Shown one piece after another: positions 4,376 through 62,988 of a stretch of 64,000 nt of DNA; within the stretch, counting starts at the first letter, position 1; each line of letters begins with the position of its first letter. Made by a program: the position numbers and the translations under genes. Below the pieces are notes generated by a model. It saw nothing but the letters and a program-made list of their open reading frames with translations. It was not told the origin of the DNA and made no database searches. The stretch comes from Candidatus Aenigmatarchaeota archaeon (GTDB lineage Archaea; Aenigmatarchaeota; Aenigmatarchaeia; CG10238-14; SCSR01): contig JACRAE010000006.1 of assembly GCA_016213525.1 (NCBI GenBank), forward strand, positions 16,691 to 80,690, read 5' to 3'.

Positions 4376-4806
4376 AGCAGGATCCTTAGTATATTTTGGG
4401 TCTTGTTATAGGATAATATTATTGGTTTCGATGAAATCTGCAGCCCGCCGGCGTCCACCAGGCCCCTCGTGAGGTTGTGGACCGTGGTCGCATACCTGAC
4501 AGCCCCGGGTTGGGTTATCGTCACCAGGTGGGTCGTGTTCAGCCACACCTGGGTGAAGGCGCCGGCGGTGGTGTTGGATATGCGGGTCGTTATGTTGACG
4601 TTGTCGCACTCCTTGCAGGACACGAGCTCCTTCACGGCTAGGGCCGAGAAGTAGCTGTTCACGGTCTTCCTGTTCTGCTCCGCTATGTCGTCCGTGAAGA
4701 CGTCTATTCTGCCCCTGAAAAGGCCGCTTATGGAGAGGAACAGGGCGAGCCCTATCATGAAAAAGAGGACGAACTGGATGACCTGGGACTGTCCTTTGGA
4801 CGGCAT
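4372..4806 (-). CDS. Archaeal type IV pilin-like protein
   Basis: MPSKGQS followed by a hydrophobic segment, a class III signal. It overlaps the ATPase start by 4 nt. Confidence 0.55.
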   Translation of the reverse strand: MPSKGQSQVIQFVLFFMIGLALFLSISGLFRGRIDVFTDDIAEQNRKTVNSYFSALAVKELVSCKECDNVNITTRISNTTAGAFTQVWLNTTHLVTITQPGAVRYATTVHNLTRGLVDAGGLQISSKPIILSYNKTQNILRILL

Positions 4807-5463
4807 CTATATCAATAGGATTTTCACGTCTGTAGTAATCAAGGTTTTCGGGCCCACGGTTTGCTGGCTCCTCCTGTCGAACTCCATCCTTATCGCCCTC
4901 TTCTCGCCCGAGGAAATGAGCTGGCTCGACGGGTGCTTGACCAGGTTGATTTTGAAGCCGTTCCTCTTCTCGGCGTCCTCGAGCTCCCTCATGAACATTT
5001 TGTAGGTGATGTTGTAGTGCCCCGAGCCGGTCCTGGAGGCCTTGGCGCAGATCACGGCCGGCTCGTCCTGTCCCAAAACCCCATTGGCAGGCGGGCACGC
5101 GCCCCCCGTCAGGGAGACCCACTTGCCGTCCGTGTTCTTGCTGCTGACGGTACCCGTGAACGTGAACTCGAGGCTGTTGTTCTCCACTGCTACCGAGTCG
5201 TATGGGTACAGGCGGACGACCCCGTTCAGGTCTATGGTCACCTGGTCCTTGCCGCCGCTGTTGGCCACGGCCTGGATCTTGTTCTGAATCGAGTTTATGT
5301 TCGTCTCCGAGAAGAACGCCTGGGCCCTCTTGTCCAACGCCTCGTCCTGGTTCTTGTTTATCAGGGGCAGGCCGAACGTGTACGCCACCCCGAGGAGGCC
5401 TATCGCCAGGCCGAGTATCATGACGACCGCTATTATGTCGGACTGTCCTTTCAGGAGCTGCAT
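4807..5463 (-). CDS. Archaeal type IV pilin-like protein
   Basis: MQLLKGQSDIIAVVMILGLAIG, a class III signal peptide, followed by a beta-rich extracellular part. Confidence 0.55.
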   Translation of the reverse strand: MQLLKGQSDIIAVVMILGLAIGLLGVAYTFGLPLINKNQDEALDKRAQAFFSETNINSIQNKIQAVANSGGKDQVTIDLNGVVRLYPYDSVAVENNSLEFTFTGTVSSKNTDGKWVSLTGGACPPANGVLGQDEPAVICAKASRTGSGHYNITYKMFMRELEDAEKRNGFKINLVKHPSSQLISSGEKRAIRMEFDRRSQQTVGPKTLITTDVKILLI

Positions 5464-5485
5464 AAGAATCTATTTTCCAAGTCGC

Positions 5486-6010
5486 CTATACCGGCTTCGG
5501 CTGGAACATCGGCGGGCGCCTTATCGTGCCTGGGGGCGGAAGCTGCATCGGCCTCCTCATCTTCTTCTCCATCTCTTCTATGGAGCTCATGACGGCCTGG
5601 TTGCTGTCCACTATCTTTTTGTTGCTGTCCACGATTTCGGCCATCTTGTCAATCAGCGGCTTCATGTTGTCGACGGAAGGCGCGCCGTAGTCCTCGCCCC
5701 CGGACGCCTTGATAAACGATATCAGCTCGTCGAGCTTGCCGATCATGTCCTCCAGCCTGGAAGGCAGCCTCGAAAGCTCAATCCTCAGGGAGTCGTTCGC
5801 CTTCGCCAGTTCGTCTACAATCTGCTGGTTCATCCTGATTATCTCGACCAGCTCGCGGTAGAATTCTTTCGAGTCCAAACCAGAAGACTTGGTCTCTATC
5901 TCTTCCATCCTCTTCTCCAGCTTCCTCAGCGGGGAGACGGGAATGAGCTCGTACTCGTGCTCGTCCTGGACGCGGTCCTTTATCTTGTTGCTTTGGTCCT
6001 GCATCGGCAT
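5486..6010 (-). CDS. Coiled-coil hypothetical protein (first gene of the pilus operon)
   Basis: Charged, helical protein with a proline-rich tail. An A/T-rich promoter-like segment lies upstream at 6011–6050. Confidence 0.4.
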   Translation of the reverse strand: MPMQDQSNKIKDRVQDEHEYELIPVSPLRKLEKRMEEIETKSSGLDSKEFYRELVEIIRMNQQIVDELAKANDSLRIELSRLPSRLEDMIGKLDELISFIKASGGEDYGAPSVDNMKPLIDKMAEIVDSNKKIVDSNQAVMSSIEEMEKKMRRPMQLPPPGTIRRPPMFQPKPV

Positions 6011-6086
6011 TTGAGCACCTTAGATTATTTGGCTAAAGGGGCAGATAAAAGTTTGCGTGGGGCGGAATCCGCGCGTTTCTCCGTGT

Positions 6087-6548
6087 TTAAAGGTCCGTTT
6101 CGACGTCGATTTTCATGTTGGGCATGCCCCTGAGCTTCTCCAGGTTGCGCCTGTATGACAAGTCGCTGAGGCACGCGTCGCCCATCTCGGTCAGATGATA
6201 AGTGTCGCGGCCCTCGCGGCTCAGCACGGGGAAGTCGTAAGTGGAGAGCGCGGAGAGCACTTTCTTGACGCTGTTCTTCGAGAGCCCCGTCTCCACGGCC
6301 ACGTCGTCCGGGACTATTGTGAAGCAGTTCCTGTTCTCATAAGAAATGGACTCCATACCGCACCTCTCGCCATGGAGGTACTCCAAGACCTTCCTGGCCT
6401 TCTCGTCCCCCATAACCAGTTCGGTTATCAGGCGGGCATAGCGGTTCTTACTCTCGTTCTTCTTGTACTCCCGTATGTGGTCCGTGCGGCCGTCCTTCTG
6501 CTGGGGCATGTAGCCGGCGTCCGCATGCTTGTCTAAAGTTGCGTTCAT
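6087..6548 (-). CDS. Winged-helix DNA-binding protein (putative regulator)
   Basis: C-terminal wHTH-like segment GLSKNSVKKVLSALSTYDFPVLSREGRDTYHLTEMG. Confidence 0.35.
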   Translation of the reverse strand: MNATLDKHADAGYMPQQKDGRTDHIREYKKNESKNRYARLITELVMGDEKARKVLEYLHGERCGMESISYENRNCFTIVPDDVAVETGLSKNSVKKVLSALSTYDFPVLSREGRDTYHLTEMGDACLSDLSYRRNLEKLRGMPNMKIDVETDL

Positions 6549-6576
6549 GGAAAGTCTATTAAAACCTAACGTTTAA

Positions 6577-7011
6577 ATGTCTATCATGAGGAGCGAAAGA
6601 TCGGCGGGTTTCGTCGTTTTCAGGAAAGACACCAGGGGTCTGGTCTACCTTTTGTTGCAGAACAGCTCTAAGTTCTTCTGGGACTTCCCGAAGGGCCACA
6701 TATCCCCCGGGGAGGGCGAGGAGGCGGCCGCGAGGCGCGAGCTGATGGAGGAGGCCGGAATAACCCAGATAACCCCCGTCTCGGGGTTCCGCGAGCAGGT
6801 CAGCTATTCCTACACGTTCAGGGACGAGGTCATACAGAAAGACCTCATAATGTTCGCGGGAGAGGTCCCAGACGAGAGGGTCGTATTGTCTTGGGAGCAC
6901 AGCAGCTTCGCATGGCTGACCTTCGACGACGCGAGGGAGAGGCTGAAGGACAAGAAGCTGGCCGTTCTAGAGAAGGCGCACGGGTTCCTGTCCGAGAACC
7001 TTGGACTTTGA
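6577..7011 (+). CDS. NUDIX hydrolase
   Basis: A perfect Nudix box, GHISPGEGEEAAARRELMEEAGI. Confidence 0.75.
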   Translation: MSIMRSERSAGFVVFRKDTRGLVYLLLQNSSKFFWDFPKGHISPGEGEEAAARRELMEEAGITQITPVSGFREQVSYSYTFRDEVIQKDLIMFAGEVPDERVVLSWEHSSFAWLTFDDARERLKDKKLAVLEKAHGFLSENLGL

Positions 7012-7045
7012 GCCGAAGAAGAATCCTATTATGAGAGCCGGGTTC

Positions 7046-8704
7046 CTACTCGCCGCCCATTCCGCCCATGTCCGGCATCCCACCCCTCGGCATGCCGCCG
7101 CCCATCTTGCTGGCTGATATCACGTCGTCTATCCTGAGAATCATCTCGGCGGCCTCAGACGCGGACTTTATCACCTGTGTCTTCACCTTCAGCGGCTCGA
7201 CTATGCCCTCCTTCTTCGCGTCTATCACGTTCCCGGTGAACACACCGACACCGGCGTTCAAGTTCCCCTTCTCATGCTCCACGCGCAGGTTTACAAGTAT
7301 GTCTATCGGGTCTATGCCTGCGTTCTCCGCCAAGCTCCTCGGGACCACTTCCAAGGCATCCGCGAAGGCCCTTATCGCGAGCTGCTCCCTTCCGGAGAAC
7401 TTCTGCGCCTCCTTCTTGAGCTTGCTCGAGAGCTCGCACTCGGGCGCGCCCGCTCCGTATACTATCTTGCCGTCCTCCAACGCGGAGGAGACCGCGCCGA
7501 CCGCGTCCTCGACGCTCCTGTCGACCTCGTCCACGAAGTGCTCCGTGCTGCCCCTCACCAGTATGGTGACGGCCTTCGGGTCCTTGCAGTCCTCTATAAA
7601 CGTCATCGACTCCCCGCCTATCTTCTTCTCCTCCACCTTCTTCGCGAAGCCCAGGTCGTTCGGTCCCAGGTCGTCCAAGTTCGTGACCACCCTGCCGCCG
7701 GTGGCCTTCGACAGCGCCTCCATATCGGACTTCTTGACGCGCCTGCACACCGCTATGCCCTTCTTGGCGAGGTAGTGCTGGGCGAGGTCGTCTATCCCCT
7801 TCTGGCAGAGCAGGACGTTCGCGCCGCTCTTCGAGACCTTCTCGACCATGTCCTTCAGCATCTTCTGCTCCTGCTCGATGAAGGCCTGCATCTGGTCTGG
7901 CGACGTAATCCTTATCTCGGCGTCCGTCTCGGTCTCCTTGACCTCGAGGGCGACGTCCAAAAGTGCTATCTTCGCGTCCGCCAGGCTCTTCGGCATGGCC
8001 GGGTGCACGATCTCCTTGTCTATGACTATCCCCTTCACCAGCTGGGTGTCTTCGGTAGAACCGCCGTGCTTCTTCTCGCGCTTCACGTTGTCCGAGTCGA
8101 TGACTATCTTGCCGCCCTTAGTCTCGGCCACGGTCCTCACGGCGTCCACGACTATCTGCGCCAGCAGCGGCGAGGCGCGCTCTATCGACTTGCCGGACAT
8201 CGACGTTATCGCAATCTTCAGCAGCATCTCCGTGTCCTGGAGGGTGACAGGCTGGGCGATGTTCTGGAGTATCTTCAACGACTCCTCCTTCGCAATCTTG
8301 AATCCCCTTGCTATCACAGTCGGATGTATGTCCTGGTCGAGAAGCTCCTCTGCCTTCTTCAGCAGCTCGCCGGCGAAAATAACGGATGTGGTGGTGCCGT
8401 CCCCGACCTCCTCGTTCTGGGTCTTCGCGACCTCGACCATCATCTTCGCGGCCGGGTGCTCTATGTCCATCTCCTGCAAAATCGTGACGCCGTCGTTCGT
8501 TATGACTATGTCGCCTATGGAGCTGACGAGCATCTTGTCCATGCCCTTCGGCCCAAGGGTCGAGCGGACGGACTCGCCTACCGCGCGGGCGGCTGCTATG
8601 TTCTGCCTCTGGGCGTCCTTTCCGGTGGAGCGCAACGTGCCCTCGGGAAGAATCAGTACCGGCTGCCCGCCAAAATTACCCATCATTGCCTGACCCATGT
8701 CCAA
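7046..8704 (-). CDS. ths: Thermosome subunit (group II chaperonin)
   Basis: [17 protein letters not shown]-terminal GGM repeat tail. The true start is probably the internal [13 protein letters not shown]-like TTTAAATA lies upstream. Confidence 0.95.
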
Positions 8705-10560: not shown

Positions 10561-10680
10561 GGGAGGGTAGCTTAGCCTGGTTGGAGCGATCGACTTATAT
10601 GTCGACTAAGCGCCTGTCGCATGCTCTTGGGCATCGACTAGGAAATCGATAGGTCGCGGGTTCAAATCCCGCCCTTCCCA
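10561..10680 (+). tRNA. tRNA-Ile (anticodon TAT) with a ~45-nt intron in the anticodon loop
   Basis: Cloverleaf read by eye. Acceptor GGGAGGG/CCTTCCC, D-arm GCTT-AGCCTGGTTG-GAGC, anticodon stem ATCGA/TCGAT, loop CTTATA-[intron]-A, T-arm GCGGG-TTCAAAT-CCCGC, discriminator A. A TATA-like ATATTAAAT lies ~25 nt upstream. Confidence 0.7.
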
Positions 10681-41187: not shown

Positions 41188-41281
41188 GGGCCCGTAGCTC
41201 AGCTTGGATAGAGCGGCAGACTTCTAGACCCGAGAGGGTGGAGAGATCTGAAGGTCGAGGGTTCAAATCCCTCCGGGCTCA
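41188..41281 (+). tRNA. tRNA-Arg (anticodon TCT) with a ~19-nt intron
   Basis: Acceptor GGGCCCG/CGGGCTC. D-arm GCTC-AGCTTGGATA-GAGC. Anticodon stem GCAGA. Loop CTTCTA + intron. T-arm GAGGG-TTCAAAT-CCCTC. Purine-purine pair at 27:43. TATA-like TAATTTAAT upstream. Confidence 0.7.
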
Positions 41282-54248: not shown

Positions 54249-54345
54249 AGCCTCAACTGGGATTTGAACCCAGGACCCCTTCCTTACCATGGAATTTAGC
54301 TAGTTTTTCCTAACTATGTGCTCTACCGGGCTGAGCTATTGAGGC
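54249..54345 (-). tRNA. tRNA-Thr (anticodon GGT) with a ~23-nt intron at a non-canonical position (26/27)
   Basis: Minus-strand read. GCCTCAA-TA-GCTC-AGCCCGGTA-GAGC-A-[CATAGTTAGGAAAAACTAGCTAA]-ATTCC-ATGGTAA-GGAAG-GGGTC-CTGGG-TTCAAAT-CCCAG-TTGAGGC-T. No canonical anticodon arm is possible without removing the insert. Coordinates ±1. Confidence 0.55.
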
Positions 54346-60608: not shown

Positions 60609-61139
60609 TCACGCCTTCCTAGATTTCGCGTACTCCCTGATTATGTTCCTGAAAGATACGGTGTAATTCCCAGGGTTTTTCCTAACGTCCTTTAAAACAA
60701 AATCAAGGTCCGTCCAGACGGGCTTCGCCCCCACTTCCTTCCTGTCGTGCCTGAAAGGTCCTGGATGCACGGCCTCGAAGACCGTCGTTATCTCCTTGTT
60801 TTTCGCCAGGTTGTCGTTGGCGAATTTCAGGACCCTCCTCAACTTTATGTCCGGCATCCTCATGCCGGCGAACAGCTCCTCCTTCATCTCCGTCTCGGCC
60901 GCCTTCCTCGCGGTCTCGCCCGCCATGACGTGCCCGCCCGCGGAGTGCTGCCATAGTCCCGGGTCCTGCTCCATGTCCGTGCTCCTCTTCTGCAGCAGAA
61001 TCTCCCTCCTAGTCCTGTCTTTGAAAATCAGCACGCACGACGTCCTGTGCCGCAGACCCTTCCTATGGCACTCCGTCCAGGTGGCCTTGCCCACGACTCT
61101 GTCGTCCTCGTTCACCACGTCGTAAGTCTCGTCTTCCAT
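60609..61139 (-). CDS. NUDIX-family hydrolase
   Basis: Nudix-box-like GGHVMAGETARKAAETEMKEELF. Confidence 0.65.
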   Translation of the reverse strand: MEDETYDVVNEDDRVVGKATWTECHRKGLRHRTSCVLIFKDRTRREILLQKRSTDMEQDPGLWQHSAGGHVMAGETARKAAETEMKEELFAGMRMPDIKLRRVLKFANDNLAKNKEITTVFEAVHPGPFRHDRKEVGAKPVWTDLDFVLKDVRKNPGNYTVSFRNIIREYAKSRKA

Positions 61140-61179: not shown

Positions 61180-61737
61180 CTAGACGCTCCATTTCTTGTC
61201 CGTGCTGTCGAACTTCCCGGTGTTCAGGACGTAGAATTCGCTCCCCCTGTAAGACACGGTGCCCTCAGACATGTCGTATCTGTCCCTCAGGTCGCCTATT
61301 ATCGGCCTGGCCCACCTCTCGGAGACGATGAGACTCGGGTTCCTCCTCCCGTATTCCGACAGCGCAATCTTCATCCCGACCGCATCGTTGATCTCGGCCT
61401 CTATCCTGTCGAACGCCGAGGCATAGACTTTTACCGGTCTGCCGTCGGACGCCTCCCTGTCGCCGGTGGCCACAATCATCCCTATTCTCTGCAGCGCGTC
61501 CATGTTCCTGTAGAGCGACGTCATCGGGACTTTCAAGGATGGGTCCCTGGCGGCCCCTATCTTGGTGTTCTTGTTGCGGGAGAAATAGCTGTAGAGTTCG
61601 AAGTTGTCCGCTATCGCGCCGATTATCGCCGCAGCCGCCTCCTCGTCGGGCACGTAGTCCCACCGTCCTTTCATACAGATTCGGATGGAAGCGAAGCTTT
61701 TATGCTTTCCCGCCGCCTCCGGAAAAAAGTCGGTCAT
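61180..61737 (-). CDS. Winged-helix protein (putative transcription regulator)
   Basis: wHTH-like MTSLYRNMDALQRIGMIVATGD. Its ATG lies inside the 18-bp direct repeat. Confidence 0.4.
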   Translation of the reverse strand: MTDFFPEAAGKHKSFASIRICMKGRWDYVPDEEAAAAIIGAIADNFELYSYFSRNKNTKIGAARDPSLKVPMTSLYRNMDALQRIGMIVATGDREASDGRPVKVYASAFDRIEAEINDAVGMKIALSEYGRRNPSLIVSERWARPIIGDLRDRYDMSEGTVSYRGSEFYVLNTGKFDSTDKKWSV

Positions 61738-61750
61738 GCTCCCTGTGGGA
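61733..61750. repeat. Direct repeat A (GTCATGCTCCCTGTGGGA), a copy of the tRNA-Glu 3' end
   Basis: 17/18 identical to 62741–62758. It flanks the low-GC island. Confidence 0.8.
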
Positions 61751-62740
61751 ACGTCTATGGGAGAAACTTTTAGGGAGCATTATCATTTTATAATTCCGTG
61801 CTCCAAATCATATTTGAAGGGGTAAATCTCCTCGTTTTTACAATTTGGGCACAACGTTACCAGATATTCCTTGATTACATTGTTTTTTTGTAGTATACTG
61901 TAGCTATACCACACCTGTAATTCTCTATGAATTATGTTATTACAATCGACACAACGGAATATTTTTTTCTCAATAAATGTGTTTTTATTTTTCTTAATAG
62001 AATCTTTACCAAACCAAAATAAATTTATTCTTTCGTTACAAAACATGCATTTACCGTTATATTCATATTCTAAAGCTCCAAAAATATTGTTTTGTGTTGA
62101 TATTGATTTTTCGTTTCCTAATGATTTTGCTAACTCGCGTAACATAGCGGTTAATACGCCAATTTTATCGTTTTTTACGCCTACTTTTCGAATATACCAA
62201 TTAACTTTTTTATGATTAATCAAGTGTTTACAATTCCAACATTTCATATCGAATTGTTTTAATGATATCATGTAAACTATAATCGCCCTATGGATTTGTG
62301 GGTATATAAAAAACGCTACATTAGGAAAACTTCCATGCTACCTGCGGGAACTTCAATTAGGGAATTAAAAGGAGTATTATTATAGTTTCTTCTTCGGAAC
62401 AGGACCCGTTAGCTTAACATGGCATTTTTTACATATGACCATCAAATTACTTTCTCTTGGGTCTGACGGATCGTAGTTTTTATGGTGGAAGTCAAACTTG
62501 ATGTTGAACAACAAGGTACCACAGTTCTCACACTTTCCCCTAGACCGTGCCATAATTCTTTTTTGTAACCCAAATGGGATTTTAGTTCTTTTTTTCCTTA
62601 TTTTTGGTTCTATTTCAGGTTTCTTGTCAAGAGACTTCTCATATTCCTCAATCCAGTCCATAATGCTGCCCTTTTCAGGTTTGATTGTCAGACTCATAAT
62701 TTGTCTGTGACTTTCCATTCTTTTAAATATTTCTCTAATA
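61751..62740. mobile_element. ~1 kb low-GC island integrated at the tRNA-Glu 3' end (HNH endonuclease + Zn-finger ORF, no recombinase)
   Basis: Abrupt drop to roughly 30% GC between two 18-bp direct repeats. Two minus-strand ORFs. Boundary exactly at the tRNA discriminator. Confidence 0.65.
61783..62271 (-). CDS. Cys-rich zinc-finger protein (possible second HNH-like nuclease) in the AT-rich island
   Basis: Four CxxC motifs (CWNC, CMFC, CVDC, CPNC) with His/Asn between them. AT-rich codon usage unlike the host genes. Confidence 0.45.
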   Translation of the reverse strand: MISLKQFDMKCWNCKHLINHKKVNWYIRKVGVKNDKIGVLTAMLRELAKSLGNEKSISTQNNIFGALEYEYNGKCMFCNERINLFWFGKDSIKKNKNTFIEKKIFRCVDCNNIIHRELQVWYSYSILQKNNVIKEYLVTLCPNCKNEEIYPFKYDLEHGIIK

Positions 62741-62745
62741 GTCAT
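62380..62745 (-). CDS. HNH endonuclease
   Basis: GKCENCG..FDFHHKN..N..VICKKCH. Canonical HNH zinc-binding motif. ATG overlaps the tRNA-Glu discriminator. Confidence 0.7.
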   Translation of the reverse strand: MTIREIFKRMESHRQIMSLTIKPEKGSIMDWIEEYEKSLDKKPEIEPKIRKKRTKIPFGLQKRIMARSRGKCENCGTLLFNIKFDFHHKNYDPSDPRESNLMVICKKCHVKLTGPVPKKKL

Positions 62746-62758
62746 GCTCCCTGCGGGA
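62741..62758. repeat. Direct repeat B (GTCATGCTCCCTGCGGGA) spanning the tRNA-Glu 3' end and the HNH start codon
   Basis: Pairs with 61733–61750. Confidence 0.8.
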
Positions 62759-62859
62759 TTTGAACCCGCGTTTCCACCTTGCTTCTCTCATCCGATGTGT
62801 CAAATCTTTCGAAGTCAATCGAAAGGGTGGAGTCCTTGACCGGGCTAGACGAAGGGAAC
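62745..62859 (-). tRNA. tRNA-Glu (anticodon TTC) with a ~40-nt intron
   Basis: GTTCCCT-TC-GTCT-AGCCCGGTCAA-GGAC-T-CCACC-CTTTCGA-[40-nt intron]-GGTGG-AAAC-GCGGG-TTCAAAT-CCCGC-AGGGAGC-A. Confidence 0.65.
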
Positions 62860-62988
62860 CCAGACTCTTCTCTTGTGATATGGGTTATTTGGGTTTATTT
62901 CTTTAAGGGGTCTTCTAGGCGCGCCCCGGGTTTCCGGCTGCAGCAGGCCGCCGTCAATGGTTTAAATTTCACTCCCCATTTTTTTGAT

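Follow-up and report, generated by a model that had tools for sequence, protein, structure and literature searches.

An unusually small insertion of two tandem single-gene units, one carrying an HNH endonuclease gene, at the 3' end of a tRNA-Glu gene in a Candidatus Aenigmarchaeota genome

Bacterial cis-mobilisable elements (CIMEs) and integron cassettes are recombinase-less units that sit between recombination sites and accrete in tandem at a fixed site. Among phages, T4 encodes SegB, a free-standing homing endonuclease located among transfer RNA (tRNA) genes that targets the tRNA region (PMC2988022), and SegB of T6 cuts within tRNA genes, which leads to tandem amplification of a 718-bp unit of tRNA and segB via microhomology (PMC13096335). 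In archaea, the attachment (att) sites of thaumarchaeal integrated elements have a median length of 17 bp and lie mostly at tRNA 3' ends, including those of intron-bearing genes, and tandem arrays of such elements occur (PMC6563490); the casposon of A. boonei produces a target duplication of 15 bp (PMC5137440). Here, we describe an island that adjoins the 3' end of a tRNA-Glu gene within a 64-kb stretch of contig JACRAE010000006.1 (hereafter, the window), which belongs to a metagenome-assembled genome (MAG) of Candidatus Aenigmarchaeota obtained from a single metagenomic sample. The island had previously been noticed in a reading of the sequence alone (hereafter, the sequence-only reading). 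It is a real and unusually small mobile insertion, and it is more structured than first described.

The island consists of two tandem single-gene units, because a third copy of the repeat that bounds it lies between its two open reading frames (ORFs). Read in the sense of the tRNA gene, the locus runs tRNA, repeat copy R1, HNH gene, R2, a gene for a protein of 162 amino acids (aa), R3 and host gene. The sequence-only reading had seen one single element with two repeats, a view that did not survive the discovery of the third copy at 62332-62349, which splits the island in two. The features of the locus, in window coordinates, were as follows.

62745-62859, minus strand: tRNA-Glu(UUC) gene, the insertion target, still intact (Rfam RF00005, 43.6 bits)
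62741-62758: repeat copy R1, forward GTCATGCTCCCTGCGGGA, on the tRNA strand TCCCGCAGGGAGCATGAC
62350-62740, minus strand: unit B, a single-gene cassette with the HNH ORF, GC content 0.35, repeat period 409 bp
62380-62745, minus strand: HNH endonuclease ORF, 121 aa from an ATG in R1; given by NCBI as 105 aa from M17 at 62697
62332-62349: repeat copy R2, forward TCCATGCTACCTGCGGGA, on the tRNA strand TCCCGCAGGTAGCATGGA, between the two ORFs
61751-62331, minus strand: unit A, a single-gene cassette with the 162-aa ORF, GC content 0.29, repeat period 599 bp
61783-62271, minus strand: ORF of the 162-aa protein, which contains four CxxC pairs and matched no family
61736-61780: perfect 9-bp inverted repeat, ATGCTCCCT and AGGGAGCAT separated by 27 nucleotides (nt), arising from R3 together with the adjacent end of unit A
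61733-61750: repeat copy R3, forward GTCATGCTCCCTGTGGGA, on the tRNA strand TCCCACAGGGAGCATGAC; host sequence restarts directly after it
61180-61674, minus strand: host winged-helix gene, 164 aa from M22, in the flank outside the element

The 1008 bp of the island (one repeat copy counted) are an insertion between tRNA-Glu and its usual downstream neighbour, since a relative has the tRNA-Glu gene joined straight to the orthologous downstream gene. The ORF just downstream of the island (61180-61737, minus strand) had one relative at 70% aa identity among 5.8 billion clusters. This orthologue, found by a word-indexed protein search, gave two empty-site contigs, L026 (from JGI) and L027 (from Logan); scans of genome contigs and JGI metagenome contigs with the downstream protein yielded no empty site. 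Both L026 and L027 carry an orthologous intron-bearing tRNA-Glu gene (44.0 bits in L026) joined directly to the orthologous downstream gene, with a junction that reads ...GGGAGCA and then TAACCGACTTTTTTC before that gene; the empty-site sequence in L026 is ...GGTTCAAATCCCGCAGGGAGCATAACCGACTTTTTTC... After the tRNA-Glu gene, the relative reads ...GGGAGCATAACCGACTTTTTTCTCGGGG, matching the window sequence behind R3, ...GGGAGCATGACCGACTTTTTTCCGGAGG. In a blastn alignment, L026 349-476 corresponded to window 62869-62744 and L026 462-1072 to window 61750-61142. The 15 nt at L026 462-476 aligned to R1 and to R3 alike, and the relative holds a single repeat copy. The site is thus polymorphic for presence and absence, with the window occupied and L026 and L027 empty, in only one related lineage. 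The sequence-only reading had proposed that a segment of foreign composition, flanked by direct repeats, was inserted precisely at the tRNA-Glu 3' end, and it had suggested a search for an empty-site version in relatives; both the proposal and the search were successful. The comparison also corrected one detail, the use of an ATG within the repeat as the start of the downstream gene. This ATG is not the true start, because the relative has TAAC where the window has TGAC, and the NCBI start of the gene lies 21 codons later.

The island DNA is foreign and wholly unameliorated in composition, because the GC content at third codon positions (GC3) is 0.29 in the 162-aa ORF and 0.40 in the HNH ORF, compared to 0.80-0.82 in the flanking host genes. 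The mean GC content of the window was 0.559 (standard deviation 0.05, windows of 300 nt). Only in the region 61701-62901 did consecutive 300-nt windows fall below 0.42, down to 0.28, which confirmed the drop to roughly 30% GC that had been claimed for the island. An independent Logan assembly of run SRR12113407 was identical to the window across the island over 5821 nt. The island genes are known from one sample only.

The target tRNA gene contains a 43-nt insert (an intron) after the anticodon loop CUUUCGA; the loop gives the anticodon UUC and therefore the identity Glu. ARAGORN misses this gene. R1 spans the last T-loop base, the 3' T-stem, the 3' acceptor strand, the discriminator A and 4 nt beyond, so that the repeat overlaps the tRNA by 14 nt. 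R3 matches R1 at 17 of 18 positions, and the core of R2 matches R1 at 15 of 16. All three copies represent 16-18 nt of the tRNA-Glu 3' end and form direct repeats that match the target at both ends. By simple arithmetic, a 16-mer with at most one mismatch would be expected by chance about 2e-5 times per 1 kb, and in a flank-matching test both ORFs were bracketed by repeat copies beyond chance (p < 0.001). No other tRNA gene of the window had a duplicated 3' end. The two outer repeats had been located exactly, with the right sequences, in the sequence-only reading, which had also rightly taken the copy at 62741-62758 for the real 3' end of tRNA-Glu, as the Rfam match with anticodon UUC demonstrates. 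The 9-bp inverted repeat at the distal end of unit A reproduces the two acceptor-stem strands of the tRNA, with a loop of 27 nt between them. The DNA fold of this end had a z-score of -2.6, compared to -0.9 for unit B, where the counterpart of the inverted repeat is degenerate.

Each unit holds one intact, full-length ORF that lies 30-60 nt from the repeat copies on both sides, and neither contains gene fragments. Unit A has a TATA-like sequence, TTTTTTATATA, some 36 nt upstream of its start codon (reverse complement of 62303-62313), and this sequence may serve as a promoter. The presence of an HNH gene in unit B, claimed earlier, was upheld by its intact core and by matches to several PHROG HNH families (up to 2e-6). 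The core has the ββα-Me/zinc signature C72xxC75, H87H88, N100 and C105xxC108H109, and it is conserved with P0002, a protein described below, and with an unrelated 83-aa HNH protein of L012, an uncultured Nitrosopumilaceae contig. The HNH protein was 100% identical to an NCBI protein from Candidatus Aenigmarchaeota, gave only generic HNH-domain matches in NCBIfam and had no match among PDB sequences. Judged by these residues, unit B encodes a nuclease of a homing family with an intact catalytic site; unit A has no recognisable nuclease gene.

The sole relative of the window HNH protein is P0002, with 65% identity over the catalytic half. Its gene lies behind an archaeal RNase P RNA gene, is co-oriented with it and adjoins a LAGLIDADG gene. 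The contigs carrying P0002 represent one archaeal population (at least 99.85% identity), and no population variants were found among them. At this locus, 41 nt (the last 21 of the RNase P RNA and the next 20) recur right behind the free-standing LAGLIDADG ORF, and the P0002 gene follows the second copy, with no closing copy supported on its far side.

L001 4995-5035 and 5910-5949 (same in L002-L007): RNase P RNA 3'-end duplication, 29 of 41 nt matching

The duplication was significant in a shuffle test (p < 0.0003) and had the unique top score among 478 windows. Taking both loci together, at least two of the four cassette-like genes (the window HNH gene and the LAGLIDADG gene) are homing-type nuclease genes bracketed by repeats of an RNA 3' end. 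A second, independent locus at a stable-RNA gene other than a tRNA gene thus shows the same cassette theme.

We searched the island and its surroundings for genes that could account for mobility. The island contains two ORFs only and no integrase, recombinase, transposase or Cas1, in agreement with the earlier claim that tyrosine and serine recombinases, transposases and Cas1 are lacking. It likewise contains no family B DNA polymerase (PolB), having room for two small ORFs only. An SSV-type split integrase was ruled out, because no ORF spanned the junction when the units were circularised in silico. When the 20 window ORFs of 258-466 aa were compared with Pfam (E <= 1e-5), no integrase or Cas1 family was found; 17 belonged to ordinary housekeeping families and three had no match. 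Pattern searches were also negative. The repeat pattern gave 11 chance matches in viral contigs, all in unrelated phage-like contigs; the junction pattern gave none in viral contigs and two chance matches in JGI metagenomes, in contigs of 48% and 70% GC; the tRNA-Glu 3' end pattern was not found in viral contigs.

Compared with the described systems, the island resembles the SegB loci in having a small self-contained nuclease gene beside tRNA genes. In T6, tandem repeats of a tRNA-plus-nuclease unit of about 0.7 kb are found (PMC13096335), and in genomes devoid of segB the enzyme targets the tRNA region (PMC2988022), whereas cleavage by the HNH protein is only proposed here. SegB differs in being a GIY-YIG enzyme rather than an HNH enzyme and in residing in a phage rather than in an archaeal chromosome. 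Moreover, the T6 unit includes a whole tRNA, whereas the island repeats only the last 16-18 nt and its units carry different genes. The location at a tRNA 3' end, the short direct repeats, the tandem arrangement, the foreign composition and the empty site in relatives are shared with archaeal tRNA-integrated elements (PMC6563490). However, these elements have multiple genes including their own integrase, whereas the units described here measure 0.4-0.6 kb, have one gene each and lack an integrase; the island is therefore not an integrase-bearing integrated element. Casposons also insert at tRNA 3' ends, duplicate a defined target, form tandem units that share a copy of the duplication and carry HNH genes as cargo (PMC5137440, PMC4779613, PMC6563490). 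The island is not a casposon, as Cas1 and PolB are absent; it also lacks robust terminal inverted repeats and is 10-20 times smaller.

Integron cassettes are similar to the units in size and in the one-gene format. They differ in having an attC-type R''/L''-L'/R' site and a relationship to IntI and attI, none of which was found here, where the site is a tRNA end; unit A also differs in its TATA-like sequence upstream of the ORF. No GTTRRRY/RYYYAAC boxes were present at the unit boundaries, and a hairpin occurs in unit A only; an integron gene cassette was ruled out. The neighbours of the island are the tRNA gene, the winged-helix gene and a NUDIX gene, with no intI/attI platform. Overall, its closest functional parallel would seem to be either a free-standing homing endonuclease locus or a cis-mobilisable cassette without a recombinase.

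The 162-aa protein of unit A had been reported as a second Cys-rich ORF, which is indeed present. Its profile matched only 26 cluster representatives among 1.84 billion proteins, three of which carry TPR repeats. Genomic homologues were found in Nitrosopumilaceae at about 30-33% GC, and the island cargo shares its GC content with these nearest genomic relatives (L012 and L030). In L012, an HNH gene from a different subfamily precedes the homologue, and the repeats flanking the homologue were not significant. In L030 (Nitrosarchaeum sp. MAG JBKKCM010000019.1), it lies inside a 3.3-kb Cas1 element (4743-8072) whose two ends carry a 15-bp direct repeat without mismatches, ATTAAAAATTTATAA (4743-4757 and 8058-8072), with inverted repeats of about 26 bp just within. 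The genes of this element encode Cas1 (Pfam, 5.6e-47), a GNAT protein, a 306-aa protein and the 162-aa homologue; family B polymerase is absent. Since the casposon descriptions consulted give a polymerase as always present, the L030 element may be a polymerase-less or deleted casposon. Nitrosopumilaceae-like archaea of low GC content, or mobile elements of theirs, are the most probable source of the island cargo, a source that hints at DNA exchange between DPANN archaea (Aenigmarchaeota) and Nitrosopumilaceae, possibly as a symbiont-host pair.

Several observations were made on these homologues in passing. The insertion point of the L030 element is the stop codon of a host ORF of 107 aa. Within it, a 33-nt direct repeat (4950-4982 and 5482-5514) brackets the 162-aa homologue (p < 0.001). 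Because both copies lie directly upstream of start codons and each has a palindrome, duplication of an operator, rather than scarring by an insertion, may explain them. Upstream of the homologues in L013 (150-215) and L014 (70-145), about 70 conserved nt encode ...DGKTPSEKCGIKINGENKWITLIQNA followed by a stop codon. This segment had no Pfam or NCBIfam match; it could represent the C-terminus of a DDE (rve-type) transposase.

Elsewhere in the window, six tRNA genes were detected with Rfam, four of which are 94-120 nt long (10561-10680, 41188-41281, 54249-54345 and 62745-62859) and, because of this length, presumably contain introns. ARAGORN misses three of the four long genes and calls the fourth tRNA-??? 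with a four-base anticodon. The NUDIX gene (60609-61139, minus strand) sits between the winged-helix gene and a gene for a MacB-type permease, two genes that adjoin in L026, where the NUDIX gene is absent. This difference is ordinary gene gain or loss and not part of the island, since the GC3 of the NUDIX gene (0.80) is host-like.

We tentatively favour the possibility that the island is a tandem pair of small free-standing selfish cassettes of the homing-endonuclease type, with the 3' ends of stable-RNA genes as their landing sites, rather than a miniature island carried by an integrase, because two homing-type nucleases are bracketed by repeats, the units are compact and self-contained, and there is phage precedent. 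The HNH protein would cut a cassette-free tRNA-Glu locus at or beside the junction of the tRNA 3' end and the downstream DNA, and the break would be repaired by copying from a cassette-bearing locus. Homology on one side would be provided by the conserved tRNA, and on the other side the trailing repeat copy would be the only homology needed, which would make the cassette portable between genomes that share only the tRNA. Insertion would split the site of the enzyme and retain a functional copy of the tRNA. The tandem array would stem from a second event at the tRNA-proximal copy, with unit A, which has no nuclease gene, carried along by the HNH protein acting in trans.

A number of points weigh against homing-type cassettes. 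Classical homing leaves no direct repeats; when a repeat matches a tRNA 3' end, the textbook explanation is integrase recombination. A length of 16-18 nt is short for homology-directed repair, and the cleavage of the tRNA-Glu site would require a specificity of the HNH protein that we infer. The Pfam HNH score of the ORF, 19.8 bits, is just under the threshold (21.4), and the 162-aa protein matched no nuclease family and no fold and was not recognisable as a recombinase. The pattern is supported by two loci only, and a third RNase P RNA end behind the P0002 HNH gene in L001 was not above background. Finally, neither cassette had another copy in viral contigs (searched by protein) in phage and plasmid collections (searched by protein and DNA) or in JGI metagenomes (searched by junction pattern), and we therefore infer mobility from one occupied and one empty site.

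The repeat of 16-18 nt at a tRNA 3' end fits an att core and a casposon target duplication alike, and both lead to other readings of the island. The units could be integrase-less cassettes of an att site and one gene, the archaeal analogue of bacterial CIMEs, for which a tyrosine recombinase provided in trans would have carried out conservative recombination with the 3' end of tRNA-Glu. A 16-18 bp repeat in this position is typical of such recombination, and the differences between R1, R2 and R3 would need no mutation if exchange took place within the invariant AGCATG and the units brought their own att variants. The unit ends beside R2 and R3 are also alike (p about 0.009, post hoc). Even so, we regard att cassettes as somewhat doubtful, given that the island and the 20 integrase-sized window ORFs have no integrase, that searches of viral contigs and JGI metagenomes turned up no attP-like relative, and that elements of 0.4-0.6 kb are not mentioned in a review of archaeal recombinases (PMC8371274). 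The nuclease-dominated cargo at two independent loci would also be left unexplained. Alternatively, the 16-bp repeat could be the target duplication of miniature non-autonomous casposons, in which a Cas1-family casposase would act in trans on short terminal inverted repeats and each further unit would be added at the copy nearest the tRNA, as happens in tandem casposon arrays. Casposons of family 2 choose tRNA 3' ends, where the T-loop region is a determinant and the target is duplicated, and HNH genes occur among their cargo (PMC5137440, PMC6563490); tandem casposons with a shared duplication are known from Methanosarcina, and reported duplication lengths are 14-35 nt (PMC4779613). The casposon link drawn in the sequence-only reading holds insofar as the homologue of the unit A protein resides in the Nitrosarchaeum Cas1 element with its 15-bp duplication and inverted repeats; it fails on Cas1 and PolB, which were found neither in the island nor among the window ORFs tested. 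The terminal inverted repeats as drawn in that reading, with 18-bp boundaries, were indistinguishable from chance (shuffle p 0.16-0.24). When the boundaries are set at 16 bp, AC opens three of the four unit termini, and these three resemble one another (p 0.006-0.009, about 0.007 for the three), namely both termini of unit B, as an inverted pair, and the distal terminus of unit A; the candidate casposase-substrate ends would be ACTATTAGAGAAATATTTAAAAG and ACTTCAATTAGGGAATTAAAAGG. However, this similarity is post hoc and does not extend to the proximal terminus of unit A, and by eye the termini are unlike the L030 inverted repeats. In addition, the repeat overlaps the tRNA by 14 nt, compared to 5 nt in A. 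boonei (PMC5137440), and our literature search found no description of a natural non-autonomous casposon. Miniature casposons are quite improbable.

That the units are decayed remnants of two integrated elements (proviruses, plasmids or casposons), placed in tandem at tRNA-Glu and stripped by internal deletions of nearly everything, recombinases included, with selfish nuclease genes the likeliest survivors, would agree with the lack of a recombinase in the island. Tandem integration followed by decay is common at tRNA genes, and solo casposon terminal repeats have been documented (PMC4779613). This reading is weakened because both units hold exactly one complete, snugly fitting gene with no fragments around it, which would require two equally neat deletions, and the composition is wholly unameliorated; we consider it quite improbable. 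An assembly chimera, in which a low-GC fragment of another organism was stitched into the contig, might be suspected from the single metagenomic sample and the sharp break in composition. It is very unlikely, to the point of being nearly negligible, because the Logan assembly is identical and the breaks fall on repeats, three in all, of the 3' end of the host's own tRNA; beyond the island, host gene order also picks up again exactly as in the relative.

Extending the idea of homing-type cassettes beyond this island, it is unlikely but conceivable that they represent a new minimal mobile element, in which one-gene nuclease cassettes (HNH, LAGLIDADG, possibly four-CxxC) carry the 3' end of a universally conserved stable RNA as portable homology and home behind tRNA and RNase P RNA genes across distant archaea, here from Nitrosopumilaceae-like archaea to DPANN, without integrase or transposase. 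If the cassettes move on their own, they would be among the smallest mobile units known in archaea, and a nuclease gene would be able to spread between phyla with the end of a conserved RNA gene as its sole landing pad. If instead an enzyme acts on them in trans, the island would be a natural mini-element at a tRNA gene with neither integrase nor casposase, of which we found none described for archaea, and a compact substrate for studying that enzyme. In either case, the likely Nitrosopumilaceae-type origin of the cargo offers a lead on the DNA-exchange partners of these episymbionts.

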